Below, in pieces: positions 46,366-53,350 of a DNA stretch of 64,000 bases. The translations under genes were made by a program, and so were the position numbers. This DNA comes from a virus: positions 64,001 to 128,000 of IMG/VR virus record IMGVR_UViG_3300042923_000524; one strand, 5' to 3'. How positions within the stretch are numbered: the first letter of the stretch is position 1; every line of letters starts with the position of its first letter. Below the pieces are notes generated by a model. The model had not been told where the DNA came from. It saw nothing but the letters and a program-made list of their open reading frames with translations, and did not search any database.

Positions 46366-47331
46366 TTGAAACATTTTATTATGTATAATCCAGAATTAAA
46401 AAATGTTTATCTTAATACTATTGACAACGAAGGAACTAGAGAAAATATTGGATATACTTTTCAAAAGGCTAGAATACTAGAAGATGAAAAAGGAAAAGAT
46501 ATATGTCATTTTAATTTTGATGAATTAGGTGAATTATGGAGTAGCTTCAGAGCAAAAAGTTTTGCTGCCATTACTACTAAAGTTAGTATTATAGTTAAGT
46601 ATATTGACTTTTGTATTGATAAAGGATTGGCTGATGTAAACTACAATTGGGCAAAGATGTACTTTAATGAAGATGGATTAAGACCATATGTAAGCAAAGT
46701 TGCTATAGGTAATAAAATAATTGACAAAGAAACTTTAGAAGATATAATTGATTTTTGTGCTAACGCTCAAGATGCTGTAATCTTTGCATTATTATTTGAA
46801 GGTGTAAAGGGTAGACCAATACAAGAAAATGCCTTTGAAGAAGTTAGGAATCTTAGAATGGTTGATTGTAATACTGATACTAATGATATTATACTAAGAC
46901 AAGATGATGGTAAAACAAGAGTTATTCAAATATCTGAAAGAACTATGAATTTAATAGTAGATGCTTATAATCAACAAACGTATTTAAGAAAAAATGGCGA
47001 ATCAACCGCAAAACTTAAAGAGATAGAAATGATTGATACAGGTTATGTTTTAAAATTAGGTGATATAGGCAAGAATTCCAATTCGAGTGAAGATAGAATA
47101 AGTCATCAAGTTTTATTTAGAAGACTAAAGAATATTGCAAAAGCATATGGAAATAGTTTTTTAACACCTACTAATATTTACATGAGTGGAATGGTTGACT
47201 ATGCTCAAAGACTGCAAACTGAAAAAGGTGTAGAATTAGACAATAATGATTATATTCATATATGTGAGAAATATGGAATAGACCCTAAAAGATGGTATAA
47301 GATAAAAGTGGAGATTAAGCAGTATCTATAA
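46366..47331 (+). CDS. Integrase-fold protein lacking catalytic motifs, SPbeta YopR/MrpR master-repressor-like
   Basis: DAVIFALLFEGVKG...EEVRNLRMVD; LTPTNIYMSG replaces HxLRH. Confidence 0.65.
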   Translation: MKHFIMYNPELKNVYLNTIDNEGTRENIGYTFQKARILEDEKGKDICHFNFDELGELWSSFRAKSFAAITTKVSIIVKYIDFCIDKGLADVNYNWAKMYFNEDGLRPYVSKVAIGNKIIDKETLEDIIDFCANAQDAVIFALLFEGVKGRPIQENAFEEVRNLRMVDCNTDTNDIILRQDDGKTRVIQISERTMNLIVDAYNQQTYLRKNGESTAKLKEIEMIDTGYVLKLGDIGKNSNSSEDRISHQVLFRRLKNIAKAYGNSFLTPTNIYMSGMVDYAQRLQTEKGVELDNNDYIHICEKYGIDPKRWYKIKVEIKQYL

Positions 47332-47608
47332 TTTAAAAATAAAGTAGTTTTATTACTACTTTAACAAATACAAATATAAAATTTATTTAATAAAAGTGTT
47401 GACAAAGGCAAAAAGTGGTAGTAGTATTATAGATAAGAGGTGAGTATATGAAACAATATGGATATATGATTCTTGTTTTAGGTATTATTGGAGTGGCTAT
47501 AGCAGTGGTAATAAGATTTATAAAATAAGCTAACCAAATTGAGATTTGGTCGTGATTTTAGAAAAACTAGCCGCTGCGAGAGTAGGGTTGTAGAAAAGGA
47601 GAATAAAT

Positions 47609-48090
47609 ATGAAAAGTGATAATGTAATTAAAGAAACAAGAGTTTTAGATAATGGAAAGAAATTTAATGTTATAGTAAGATATGTCGGAACAGGTACTAT
47701 AGAAGATATTCTCACAGATTTTGCAAACGAAATGGTTAAAAAGATAAATTTAGGAGTTGATAAATATGACAAATTATCAAAACAGATTAAATGATTTGAG
47801 AAAAGAATATATTAACAATCTTAAAGAGGAAGGTGACATATCATCTAATGAAGAATGGTTAATAAATAAACTTTTTGATTTTCTAATAGAGGGGGCTAAC
47901 AATGACAGCTCGAGATAATTCAAATGTAGTTTATAAAGAAGGTTATCCTAAAATCACTAAAACAGTGCATAGGTCAAGAGGTGGCTATGACATAAATGTG
48001 ACTTGGGTACACACAGGAGAAAAAACTATAAAAGAATTTATTTCAGATTATGCAGAGCAAATAATTAAAAAGATTAATGATAAAATTTAA
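47609..48090 (+). CDS. Two paralogous small proteins (47609-47794, 47902-48090)
   Basis: Shared NVxxxxxG...TIxxxxxDxAxxxxKKIN pattern. Confidence 0.55.
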
Positions 48091-48429
48091 AATCAAAAGA
48101 AGGGAGGGTAGTTATATGACTGGTGAATTATTAATAAAAGGAAATACTGGTTGTTATCACATATTGAATTCAAAGGATTGTATAAATCACAATGTATCAG
48201 AAATCTTAGATTTTAATTTAGATAAAGAAAAGACTATATGTATTACAACAAAGAGTGAAAATATTTTATTTAATGAATGTGGAATTGTTAATAAACACCA
48301 AGTACAAGAAAATATGTTTGATTATTTTGTAAATGATAAAAATCTCACACAGATATTATGGGATAACTTAAATAATAAAATTGTGTTTAAAGTATCTTAA
48401 ATAACATTTAAATTTATTGGCACTAAATA

Positions 48430-48657
48430 ATAAAGGCGGTCTTAGCAAAGGAGTAAAACCTTTAATTGTCTGCAAGGATAATTTCGCCTATAGTCGAGAT
48501 AGTGACAAGTAAATCTTATTAATAAGTTTTGTAATACACTCGATAAGGTAATAAGTGCGAAAGTGAAGCGAACGTGTTTCTACTGTAGTATTCGCACCTA
48601 TTGAAACTGCTAACACAAAGTCCGTTAGCACAACTTATAATTAAATACAATTGTAAC
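48430..48657 (+). ncRNA. Cas12f1 tracrRNA
   Basis: Anti-repeat CACAACTTATAATTAAATACAATTGTAAC (48629-48657) is complementary to the array repeat. Segments CTCGATAAGGTA and TGAAACTGCTAACACAAAGTCCGTTAGC resemble the AsCas12f1 tracrRNA as remembered. Confidence 0.75.
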
Positions 48658-48722
48658 AATTGAATAGTTTCGCATTATTATAACTTAAAAGTGTTGAAAA
48701 TGCTGTTTTGGATTTGTAAGCA

Positions 48723-49017
48723 GTTACAATTTGTATATTATATAGGTTGTAAGTTTTAGAGCATTGATTTCTGTTTCTATTGCGTTTAAAGTTACAATTT
48801 GTATATTATATGAGTTGTAAGTTACTTTGCAAATGTCGAAAATAGATGTATAATTATTACAATTTGTATATAAATATGGGTTGTAAGTTGACTACAGGTG
48901 TTAATATTTATTTATTCTTCATGTTGCAGTGTATTATATGAGCTGTAAGTTTAAAAGCCATTTATAAAATCATCTTTGTATTTGCTTTTGCAATCTGTAT
49001 ATTATATGAGTTCTAAG
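48723..49017 (+). CRISPR. CRISPR array, 5 repeats / 4 spacers
   Basis: Repeat GTTACAATTTGTATATTATATGAGTTGTAAG at 48723, 48791, 48856, 48923 (shortened) and 48987; spacers 37, 34, 35 and 37 nt; degeneration increases towards the cas gene. Confidence 0.9.
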
Positions 49018-49123
49018 ACATAATTAATTGGAAAAGTTAATATATAATAATAAATTGTAAATGATAGATGTTATGATGTGAATTTAATTTATATAAGAAA
49101 AAATATAAAATAGGAGAGATAAG

Positions 49124-50437
49124 ATGAATAAATGTATAAAAATAACAATAAAAAATTGTATAAATATAGATAAATATAGACAGGTATTAAGGGATTTAAG
49201 ATATCAAACTTGGTTAGCAAGTAATAAAGCTATGACTAATTATTATACTTTTGCATTAGAGAACATGGAATATAAAAACATAAATGGAATCAACATAAAT
49301 GAGAAAGAGAGATATGGTAAAAGTTATGATGCATGGATACAAAATAGAATGAATGAGATTATGACCATGCATCAAAGTGGGAATGTAGCTCAAACAGCAC
49401 AATTTGTCGCTAAGAGATTTAAAGACGATATAAAAAAAGGTATGTTTAAAGGCAAGATATCAATATCTAATTTTAAACAAGATATCCCACTTATTATACA
49501 TAATAAAAACTATAAAATCATACAGGGTGATAAGGGATATAAAATTGAATGTAGTTTATTTAATAGAGAATACCAAAAAGAAAATATTATTAAAAAAGCT
49601 GAATTTCAAATTGATAAGATTGATAATAATTGTAAAAGTGTATTAAATAGAATTATATCTGGTGAATATAAGCAGGGTTCTATGCAAATTACAGAAGATA
49701 AAAAAGGTAAATGGTATTTTATAATTAGTTATAGTTTTGAAGCATCCAAACAAACTTTTGACCAAAATAGAATATTAGGCATAGATTTAGGTATAACTAA
49801 AGTAGCTACAATGCAAATATTTGATAAAACCATTGAAGAGTGGGATAGATTATCTTGGAAAGAATGTATGATGGATGGTAGAGAGTTAATACATTATAGA
49901 CAAAAGATAGAAGCGAGAAAAAAACAATTACAAATAGCTAGTAAGTGGTGTGGAGAAGGTAGAGTTGGTCATGGTACTAAAACAAGAATGAAACCTTTAG
50001 ATAAAATAGGAAGTGTGGTAAGTAATTTTAAAGATACATATAATCATAAAATAAGCAGATATATAATAGATTTTGCTATTAAACATAATTGCGGAATAAT
50101 TCAAATGGAAGATTTAAGTGGATTTAGTGAACAACAAACAGAAAGTTTATTAAAGAATTGGAGTTATTTTGATTTACAAACTAAGATAAAATATAAAGCC
50201 GAAGAAAAGGGAGTAGAGGTTATATTTATTAATCCTCAATATACAAGTAAAAGATGTAGTAGGTGTGGTTGTATAGACACACGAAATAGAGATTGTGAAA
50301 ATAATCAATCCAAGTTTGAATGTGTAACTTGTGGTCATAAAGAAAATGCAGATATAAATGCAGCGAAAAATATTAGTATGCCTGATATTGAAGAAATTAT
50401 TGGTGAATACATAAAATATGGTTTAAAAGTAAGTTAA
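49124..50437 (+). CDS. cas12f1: Cas12f1 (type V-F) miniature RNA-guided nuclease
   Basis: 437 aa; RuvC I ILGIDLG, RuvC II QMEDL, CSRCG/CVTCG zinc finger, RuvC III NADINAAKNI. Colinear with AsCas12f1 (SGNVAQT, RIISGEY, GHG.K.R.KP, NWSYFDLQ); array and anti-repeat adjacent. Confidence 0.88.
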   Translation: MNKCIKITIKNCINIDKYRQVLRDLRYQTWLASNKAMTNYYTFALENMEYKNINGININEKERYGKSYDAWIQNRMNEIMTMHQSGNVAQTAQFVAKRFKDDIKKGMFKGKISISNFKQDIPLIIHNKNYKIIQGDKGYKIECSLFNREYQKENIIKKAEFQIDKIDNNCKSVLNRIISGEYKQGSMQITEDKKGKWYFIISYSFEASKQTFDQNRILGIDLGITKVATMQIFDKTIEEWDRLSWKECMMDGRELIHYRQKIEARKKQLQIASKWCGEGRVGHGTKTRMKPLDKIGSVVSNFKDTYNHKISRYIIDFAIKHNCGIIQMEDLSGFSEQQTESLLKNWSYFDLQTKIKYKAEEKGVEVIFINPQYTSKRCSRCGCIDTRNRDCENNQSKFECVTCGHKENADINAAKNISMPDIEEIIGEYIKYGLKVS

Positions 50438-50580
50438 TTAATAATAAATATAAAATTAAATATATAAACCACTTGTAATTTTTTATTCTTAGTAGTATAC
50501 TAATATTAGGAAATATACAAAAACAAAAATATAGCGTTTCCAATGGTTGTAGCAATCGCAAATGACCATAAAATCGGGAT

Positions 50581-53350
50581 TTGGTCAGAAGTATAAATTT
50601 AGGAGGTATAACGATGATAGAATTATTTTGTTTAGAACATGACTGTGACTTTAACATTAATGGTAAATGTGAAAGAGTAGATTTACAAGCTAGGTATGAT
50701 GCTTCTATTGGTTCTGTTGTATTAGAAACAGAAAATTATGAGTTATGTTATAAAAGAGAGAAATAGAAAATAATTCATGGAGGGCAAACAAGATGCAATT
50801 AAAATGTATTTTTAGTATGAAAGGTATAGATATTACTCTTAATAAAATCTATGAATTATTAGACGAAGATAATTTGAATTATTACATTTATGATGATATG
50901 AACGGATATAGGGCATTTAGTAAATTTATGTTTGAAAAGATTCAATGAAAACGATATTCTATCTAAATATGAAAGGAGATTAAATAATGGAACAAAATTA
51001 TTTAGCAACATATAGAAATGGTGATAATTTTGAATATGCATGGTTTGGAACAGAAGAAGAGGCATTAGAATGGATAGATATAGAATCTCAAAAATATACA
51101 AATGTAGAAGTAGTGGAATTAAAAGTTGTAAATGTTCTATTTGAAAGAGACTAGCAAATGGTTATTCTAATGAAATTTAGAAAGGAATGTTTAATAATGA
51201 ATAAATTTCAAAAATTTGTAAGTAGGAAAGCAAAGCAAATGATTCGTAATGAAAAAAATTCTCGTAGTTTTAGATACTATAGAAAAGAATGGAGATTTAT
51301 AAAATCAGAAGTTCTTGATAGTCAAATTGATTTTGAAAAAACAAATAATTTTAAAGAAAAACAATACTCTTATTTATCTGGTGAAACTGACCCACATTGA
51401 TAAAATAACGACAAAATGCGAGATTGATAGGGAGTTGATAAATTGAAGGTAATTATAAAAACAGCATATAATGTAGACTTAAAATATATTTACTCTCATG
51501 TAAAACCATTGGTAGATAAAAATGTATTTATTAAACGTATTAGAGATGAAGTAAGTCAATATGTAAAAGCCTGTTTAGACACTTCCACAAATGAAAATGG
51601 GAATGGATTAGAAGATAACATTATCTACTATCTAATTCAAGATGGATATGCTGAAGCTAAATCAGAACATGCTAAGTATTTAATTACTGAATGAATATTT
51701 TAGGAGGCGGTTTATATGAACAAATATATAGTAAGAATTACTCCATTATATAAAGATACTTTAAATCAATTTGGAAATATAGTTTTTGAGTCAAAATTAA
51801 TTAATAGTTTGGTGGGATTGGAATCTGAATTATCAATAAATGATATATGGAATATTCCACATGTATTTAAAGTAGAAGAAGATGTTGAAGGAAAATTCGA
51901 TTAAAATGTTAATAGTATATGTGTTTTGAGGTGATTTAATGAATGAAAAAGAAGAATGGATTATAGATTATTTAAAAAATAAGACCGCATTTAAATTTAT
52001 AGATATGCTGGATGAAGATTTTGTTGAAGCATATATAGATGAATTTGAAGTTAAAAGCCAAAACATGACGTTAGGAGCTTCTAAGTGTAAGGAATTATCA
52101 AAGCTGCTTGGTAGTATGTATAAAAAAGGCTTATTGAATAGATTTCCTCATGGTGTGAGAAGTGGTTATAATCAAGATTATGCGAATTTTAAAGCACCTA
52201 AGTGGGTATATTCATATGAATTAATAAATTAAGACAAAATGTGGATTTGGAGAAAATATTGAAAGGAGTTATATATTATGGGTTCAGCACAACAAGACTT
52301 TAATAAGTTTATAGAATATAAAAGAAAGTTTAGAAATAAAGTAATAATTAAATCTGTTATCGGTATTATTTTTGTGACATTTATTATATATAAAGTATTA
52401 TTAATATAATTCCAATAAAAGGTGAAATTGATTGGGAGTTGGTAATAAAATGAAAAATAAATTAATTGGTAAAAAAGTAGATATAATCGACAAAGAATCA
52501 ATATATTATAAACATTGGGGTTTTATAAGAGGTTTTGATGGAGATGTTTATCATATAAATGGTGGTTCTATATCTTTAAATAATGGTGACTTAACTCCCA
52601 TATTTGATAGAAATCAATTTTCAGTTAGAAGAAGGCAAGAAGGAGACAATAATGAAGTGTAATAACTGTACATGTAAGAAATGTAAAAATTACGAATGTG
52701 AATATCATTGTAAGGATATGACTGATTTAGAGAAACAAATATGTGATATGGATGTATCTGGAGAATGTGATTGTTTTAAAGGAGAAAAAGATGTTAGAAA
52801 AAGTTAATCAAAACAAAGAATTAAACAAATATGTAACTATAGTTTGTCAAGATAAGATTGGTGATAATTTCTTAGAAGCCACTGTCAAAGTTAATGCCAC
52901 AATAATAATTGATAATGATGACATTAAAGATTTCTCTAAAGAGATAAGAAGATTAATACTTGGATATAAAGTTTAAATAAAACGAATATTTGATTAGGAG
53001 TTGAGAATATGGGATTAAAAGCAATACCAAATGTTTATAGTTATAGATGTGATGAGTGTAATACAGGTTCAGACCCAGTTCAAGAATATGAATCAATTAA
53101 AGAATGCCTAGAAGATTTAAAAAGTGCAGGATGGAAGGGAAATTATAAAAAACTCCTGTGTCCTGAGTGTGCAAATAAATCTAAATAAAATGAATGTTTG
53201 GAGGTAATAAGAATGTCATATTATGATTATTTAGATGATTATAGATTTATGCATCCAGAAGAATTTGATGATGCAGAAGAAAATGAAAAGAGAGCATTAA
53301 AAGAAGCTGAAGTGATAGCCAAGATTTTAAACAATATGTCCTCAAAATCA
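50581..53350 (+). CDS. Array of small hypothetical genes, several Cys-rich
   Basis: About 12 ORFs of 45-100 aa with RBSs, many separated by the 18-bp palindromic motif. Confidence 0.6.

Follow-up and report, generated by a model that had tools for sequence, protein, structure and literature searches.

The window analysed here, a stretch of 64,000 nucleotides that comprises bases 64001-128000 of the IMG/VR virus record IMGVR_UViG_3300042923_000524, very probably carries a self-contained type V-F1 Cas12f1 cassette of about 2 kb that resides on a phage and looks intact. Its three parts, a trans-activating RNA (tracrRNA), a CRISPR array and the effector gene cas12f1, all lie at 48430-50437 on the + strand. 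The same high confidence applies jointly to the carrier, which we take to be a 138-kb SPbeta-like temperate soil phage with the cassette as an accessory module. A sequence-only reading had proposed a phage-encoded type V-F system at this position, made up of an anti-repeat-bearing tracrRNA, an array of five repeats that degenerates towards the cas gene and a 437-residue effector with three RuvC acidic residues, and lacking cas1, cas2, cas4 and tnpA. The comparisons described below agree with this proposal in each of these parts. The cassette comprises the following features, with positions counted in the window.

48430..48668, + strand: tracrRNA gene (alignment of nine loci, nhmmer, covariation, minimum-free-energy fold)
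48629..48658, + strand: anti-repeat of the tracrRNA (RNAduplex with repeat positions 48722-48751)
48659..48721, + strand: junction or leader that joins the anti-repeat to the first repeat, R1 (conservation among relatives)
48722..49019, + strand: CRISPR array of five repeats (R1 to R5) of 31-35 nt and four spacers (repeat comparison, pairing energies)
49020..49053, + strand: sequence after the degenerate R5, a possible fifth guide (R5 pairing is weak, -14.0 kcal/mol)
49112..49116, + strand: Shine-Dalgarno sequence AGGAG, 7 nt ahead of the cas12f ATG (direct reading of the sequence)
49124..50437, + strand: cas12f1 gene, 437 amino acids (aa) (open reading frame, profiles, alignment of homologues)

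The open reading frame (ORF) at 49124-50437 (+) is intact, and its 437-aa product matches Cas12f proteins over nearly its entire length. The PADLOC profile Cas12u3 scores 432 bits, with effector residues 1-427 aligned to profile positions 3-393 of 398, and the PADLOC profile Cas12f scores 429 bits over essentially the whole length. The best matches among solved structures are AsCas12f entries (8j12, 7wju, 8dzj) with E-values around 1e-81 (best 2.6e-81) over residues 17-431, followed by the 433-aa Cas12f chain 9nzq (1e-71) and then by further Cas12f1 proteins. No more than about 1e-24 is reached by the classic Un1Cas12f1/Cas14a entries (7l48, 7c7l), and none of the canonical TnpB structures scores near the AsCas12f matches. 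The Cas12f1-like TNB domain of Pfam (PF07282) is found at 3e-22. Both the RuvC residues D221, E329 and D410 and the zinc-ribbon cysteines C378, C381, C400 and C403 (CxxC...CxxC) are invariant among 38 homologues of 52-70% identity, and these motifs align with those of AsCas12f. On its sequence-level defining features, all of which are present, the system is assigned to type V-F, more exactly to the V-F1 (formerly V-U3) Cas12f1 group.

The predicted tracrRNA owes its case to comparison with relatives rather than to the window by itself, whose single-sequence fold is not exceptional (z -1.46). Conservation begins with an ATAAAGG motif at 48430 and is found ahead of the arrays in eight related loci from IMG/VR and Firmicute genomes, which together with the window make up a nine-sequence alignment. 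The 5' end of the tracrRNA was placed where this conservation begins and is to that extent putative; the 3' end is uncertain and could extend to about 48690. The alignment supports six helices:

48434-48439/48484-48489, + strand: helix 1
48493-48498/48539-48544, + strand: helix 2
48515-48519/48522-48526, + strand: helix 3
48549-48553/48599-48603, + strand: helix 4
48556-48561/48591-48596, + strand: helix 5
48608-48614/48624-48630, + strand: helix 6

Over the nine loci 91.6% of these positions are paired, versus 31-38% in slid controls. Ten pairs are altered on both sides in a compensatory manner, a value that 0 of 500 shuffles reach, and largely the same helices are given by RNAalifold and by the minimum-free-energy fold of the window's own sequence. 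Helix 2 of the window is a TCGAG/CTCGA stem, and about 40 nt are inserted in stem 1 in comparison with the relatives. A hidden Markov model built from the alignment and used with nhmmer detects the element at about 25 loci, where it adjoins cas12f upstream in some and downstream in others. The Rfam scan of 47000-51500 gave no known family.

The anti-repeat at 48629-48658 is predicted by RNAduplex to pair with 48722-48751 at -21.6 kcal/mol, leaving the last bases of the repeat (AAGTT) unpaired. Taken singly, the duplex of the window is only moderately better than those of shuffled sequences, 12 of 500 of which reach it. Across the nine loci, cognate anti-repeat:repeat pairs have a mean energy of -29.9 kcal/mol versus -19.6 kcal/mol for non-cognate pairs, and the own repeat is the best partner or nearly so; at the level of predicted pairing, this fit is a covariation between two separate genes. 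The junction or leader that follows (48659-48721) has a conserved TTCGCA motif at 48671-48676 and a separate block that in relatives resembles an extended -10 element (TGGTATGAT, TTGGTATGAT-like). This stretch probably holds the promoter of the array. The promoter and terminator scan of the region performed no better than chance in AT-rich DNA (22 promoter-like sites versus 20.1 expected). RNAalifold also joins 48499-48505 to the TTCGCA region in a proposed long-range helix, which is 79% paired.

The array has a period of 65-68 nt, and each repeat terminates in GGTTGTAAG(TT) directly ahead of its spacer. It is made up as follows:

48722-48755, + strand: R1
48756-48789, + strand: spacer 1 (34 nt)
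48790-48823, + strand: R2
48824-48854, + strand: spacer 2 (31 nt)
48855-48889, + strand: R3
48890-48920, + strand: spacer 3 (31 nt)
48921-48951, + strand: R4
48952-48985, + strand: spacer 4 (34 nt)
48986-49019, + strand: R5

From R1 to R5 the identity to R1 is 34/34, 32/34, 30/35, 25/35 and 25/34, and the predicted pairing with the anti-repeat is -21.6, -22.0, -20.4, -17.9 and -14.0 kcal/mol. Because identity and pairing both fall, the decay of the repeats towards the cas gene is real: the array is intact on its tracrRNA side and eroded on the side of cas12f. The sequence at 49020-49053 would be a fifth guide solely if R5 were still in use, which is doubtful. Tandem Repeats Finder did not detect the array, as expected for interspaced repeats. 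tracrRNA, array and cas12f are all read on the + strand, and an array adjoins cas12f in most of about 90 related loci.

The 137,947-bp record has direct terminal repeats at its ends and codes for a DnaB-like helicase, a large DNA polymerase, an exonuclease V/helicase, a ribonucleotide reductase, a 586-aa serine integrase, an endolysin and a minor tail protein. From the terminal repeats together with the replication, integration, lysis and tail genes, we conclude that it is a genuine tailed phage. The window itself additionally encodes tyrosine-integrase-like proteins, a MazF-like protein and a DNA methyltransferase. Around the locus the GC content is 25-30%, the neighbours of the cassette are lysogeny and signalling genes, and the host is probably a low-GC spore-forming Firmicute. 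Two soil-metagenome DNA runs, which may be the source of the record, contain the locus with identical sequence. Neither Cas1, Cas2 and Cas4 nor the Y1 transposase TnpA (PF01797) had a Pfam profile match anywhere in the 137,947 bp, and the controls for these searches gave the expected results. Megablast of the cassette against reference phages gave no match.

Systems of this kind have been described before. The V-U3 proteins, now Cas12f1 within V-F1, occur without adaptation proteins mainly in Clostridia and Bacilli, have 422-497 aa and depend on a protospacer adjacent motif (PAM) at the 5' side, and two of them block plasmids in E. coli (PMC7229846). The accompanying tracrRNAs of 153-169 nt contain an anti-repeat, the CRISPR RNAs (crRNAs) have 40-50 nt, and a protein dimer assembles on one guide (PMC8548392). 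The cassette shares with AsCas12f1 (from Acidibacillus sulfuroxidans) and SpCas12f1 the full-length homology, the RuvC and zinc-ribbon residues, a long tracrRNA with the anti-repeat immediately before the array, the lack of adaptation genes and the Firmicute origin. The protein has 437 aa here versus 422. The order of the parts is tracrRNA-array-cas12f, whereas it is cas12f-tracrRNA-array in AsCas12f1 and SpCas12f1; the tracrRNA measures about 230 nt due to the insertion in stem 1; and the cassette, unlike these two, is borne by a phage, in AT-rich DNA from soil. We regard the differences in gene order, tracrRNA length and phage residence as minor.

Phage residence is not new in kind, because viruses that carry compact type V effectors but no adaptation genes are already in the literature. 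A landfill virome yielded viral effectors of type V close to V-F1/V-U3 as well as a Cas12f1-like jumbo-phage protein, none of them with adaptation genes, and in the tree of that study no recovered viral sequences group with Cas12f1 (PMC12607003). A 2022 survey, as far as it is cited there, reports hypercompact type V systems to be enriched on phages (PMC12607003). Like viral Cas12j/CasPhi, Cas12l/Cas-lambda and V-U/V-F1-like systems, the cassette consists of a phage-borne single effector with a small array, has no acquisition genes and is presumed to be used against competitors. Unlike the phage effectors named in that paper (Cas12j/CasPhi, Cas12L/Cas-lambda), the effector here belongs to the tracrRNA-dependent, dimeric Cas12f1 family. 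The cassette is thus of an already described kind, and no new class of system. What it provides is one more natural Cas12f1 guide architecture that is fully readable within 2 kb, from the tracrRNA helices and the anti-repeat to the repeat and the gene.

AsCas12f1 and SpCas12f1 work best at 45-55 °C; the effector described here, coming as it does from a soil phage with AT-rich DNA, might have its optimum at a lower temperature. By analogy with the two characterised enzymes, the tracrRNA would pair with the repeat-derived portion of the array RNA, and one such tracrRNA:crRNA pair would be bound by a dimer of Cas12f1. The complex would then recognise a 5' PAM and unwind the target, and its single RuvC site would cut both DNA strands about 22-24 bp from the PAM. 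Well-loaded guides are likely to be just those behind R1 to R3. The cassette may serve to interfere with further mobile elements that share a cell with the phage, and its spacers would stem from earlier acquisition through adaptation proteins acting in trans. On the same analogy, a weapon against competitors combined with adaptation by the host appears to be the most plausible reading.

Several results weigh against an intact and active phage cassette of this kind. R4 and R5, two of the five repeats, are degenerate, and the tracrRNA:repeat duplex of the window is among the weakest of the nine loci, so that Cas12f1 activity could be reduced. The sequencing runs listed as holding the locus include no RNA run. 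A search for the host by means of a conserved 678-aa phage protein returned distant Bacillus phages only, and none of the 401 Clostridiaceae genomes sampled contained the CRISPR repeat when up to 3 mismatches were allowed. Finally, there is no credible protospacer for any spacer in the collections searched. The sequence-only reading had suggested searching clostridial phages, plasmids and chromosomes with the four spacers.

No spacer matches the phage itself at up to 8 mismatches, and blastn against reference phages and plasmids (E up to 10) gave chance-level matches only. With 20-mers of spacers 1-4, just one partial match was obtained in IMG/VR, where the repeat-proximal 21 nt of spacer 4 match positions 110-129 of the 5.9-kb viral contig IMGVR_UViG_3300031227_011974 (L155). 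With 20-mers of spacers 1-3, the 185,579 species genomes gave just a partial match of spacer 3, 20 nt of which are found in two metagenome-assembled genomes (MAGs) of Peptoniphilaceae (L156:1088-1107 and L157:860-879); about one such 20-nt match is expected by chance in the 596 Gb of species genomes. In all three sequences the match ends there and no T-rich 5' flank is present, and they are probably chance matches. No 24-26-mers of spacers 1 and 2 were found in JGI metagenomes. In the reverse direction, the arrays of 91 relatives match this phage over 22 nt at most, and two spacers of one relative (L006) retrieve in IMG/VR the array itself only.

The points against could also be read as signs of a decaying relic, that is, of a once functional cassette that is now drifting, with an array that erodes without adaptation, guides that match nothing and little benefit to the phage. 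This would fit the degeneration of R4 and R5, an anti-repeat that has deletions relative to the repeat and forms one of the weakest duplexes, the missing protospacers and the identity of the locus in both soil runs that hold it. However, the 437-aa ORF is intact, has all family-invariant residues and is preceded by a good ribosome-binding site; none of the six tracrRNA helices has been lost; and R1 to R3 still agree at 30-34 of 34-35 aligned positions (86-100% identity). Absent protospacers, moreover, are usual for environmental spacers. We therefore consider a relic improbable. Still less probable, with only a slight chance in our estimate, is a host-directed or regulatory use in which the guides bind or cut control regions of the host or of prophages. 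One candidate guide for this is the promoter-like spacer 2 with its Spo0A-box-like motif, which contains TTGCAA-16-TATAAT, is detected by the promoter scan and fits a sigma-70-type consensus at 10/12 positions (48826-48854); the location of the cassette among lysogeny and signalling genes would also suit such a use. Yet promoter-like sites occur at chance frequency in this AT-rich region, spacer 2 has no match in the phage, in IMG/VR, in the species genomes or in the metagenomes, and the intact RuvC site argues for cutting over mere binding.

Annotation raises a different question, namely whether the gene is a transposon passenger mislabelled as CRISPR: an IS200/IS605-type TnpB working with an omega RNA. 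Such TnpB proteins share with the effector a common ancestry, the RuvC and zinc-ribbon core and the nature of an RNA-guided DNA nuclease of about 400 aa. Public annotations of the phage and plasmid relatives read "transposase" or "TnpB", and the top NCBIfam match is the generic guided_TnpB subfamily (171 bits). However, in the comparison with Cas12f1 and TnpB profiles that the sequence-only reading had advised, the 432 bits of Cas12u3 are set against 65 bits for NF038281 IS200_TnpB (cut-off 425) and 39 bits for NF038280 IS607_TnpB (cut-off 350). The guide is split into a tracrRNA and array crRNAs, both upstream of the gene, rather than being an omega RNA that overlaps its 3' end; Y1 TnpA and transposon ends are lacking, and the gene is present in a single copy in the phage. 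Arrays accompany most relatives, and the closest solved structures are those of Cas12f1. We consider this explanation to have hardly any likelihood, and a type V-F1 cassette remains our preferred reading. An IS200/IS605 element as a unit was likewise rejected: no terminal structures were seen, the flanks are not shared with relatives, and the protein stays below the cut-offs of the specific TnpB profiles.

Relatives of the effector are found at 71 IMG/VR loci with 28-67% identity, most of them with an adjoining array, in the cultured Bacillus phage Mgbh1 and Alicyclobacillus phage MMB025, and on 128 plasmids, including 54-kb phage-plasmids of C. perfringens. In Clostridia and Bacilli, the AsCas12f-type clade is thus common on phages, phage-plasmids and plasmids under the database name "transposase", a distribution that matters for annotation and for thinking about conflict between mobile elements. 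Since the cassette shares no flanking genes with any relative and synteny is absent, the 2-kb unit behaves as a movable module. A more far-reaching view, which we hold to be rather unlikely, is that the clade forms an autonomous tracrRNA-array-cas12f module that spreads without a transposase between unrelated Firmicute phages, phage-plasmids and plasmids, and that it includes living intermediates between a single omega-type guide and a split tracrRNA plus crRNA, such as a fused guide in one IMG/VR relative (L015) and a single-repeat array on a C. perfringens phage-plasmid. If this were true, natural variants would make it possible to study how the guide RNA was split when type V CRISPR arose, with the window as one member of the split type.

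Further observations were made in the vicinity of the cassette and among the relatives. Just upstream of the cassette are two small paralogous ORFs at 47609-47794 (61 aa) and 47902-48090 (62 aa), whose coding sequences share 76% identity over 54 nt in their C-terminal parts and which have no PHROG match. In L015 (IMGVR_UViG_3300024999_000356, positions 2072-2170), a short loop separates the anti-repeat from the 3' portion of a repeat, behind which lies a 32-nt spacer. The resulting cis hairpin (-31.2 kcal/mol, z -5.6) resembles a natural single-guide RNA ahead of a normal array; a hairpin of this type between anti-repeat and junction is absent from the window. In a Bacillota MAG (JAEWOE010000007.1), two tracrRNA-like copies flank one cas12f (L075:1918-2187 and L075:3878-4096), each with a small array beside it; the window has a single tracrRNA and a single array. 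The array beside Cas12f in IMGVR_UViG_3300045988_160394 (L007:4085-4240) has 30-nt repeats that end in ATGTATTTAAAT. We presume that these resemble clostridial type I-B repeats; if so, they would hint at borrowed host adaptation machinery.

On the C. perfringens plasmid NZ_CP148608.1 (L163:5941-7540), a Cas12f of 56% identity, labelled "transposase", lies within the capsid-tail gene block of a 54-kb phage-plasmid and is followed downstream by a tracrRNA-like RNA and a terminator. Its array differs by one unit from that of a near-identical IMG/VR contig (L024:3790-4150), with one repeat on the plasmid versus two repeats and one extra spacer on the contig. In Bacillus phage Mgbh1 (KU665491.1; L164:2640-2900), the "transposase-like protein" gp53 is a Cas12f of 38% identity, with a short tracrRNA-like stem and a two-repeat mini-array upstream of it.

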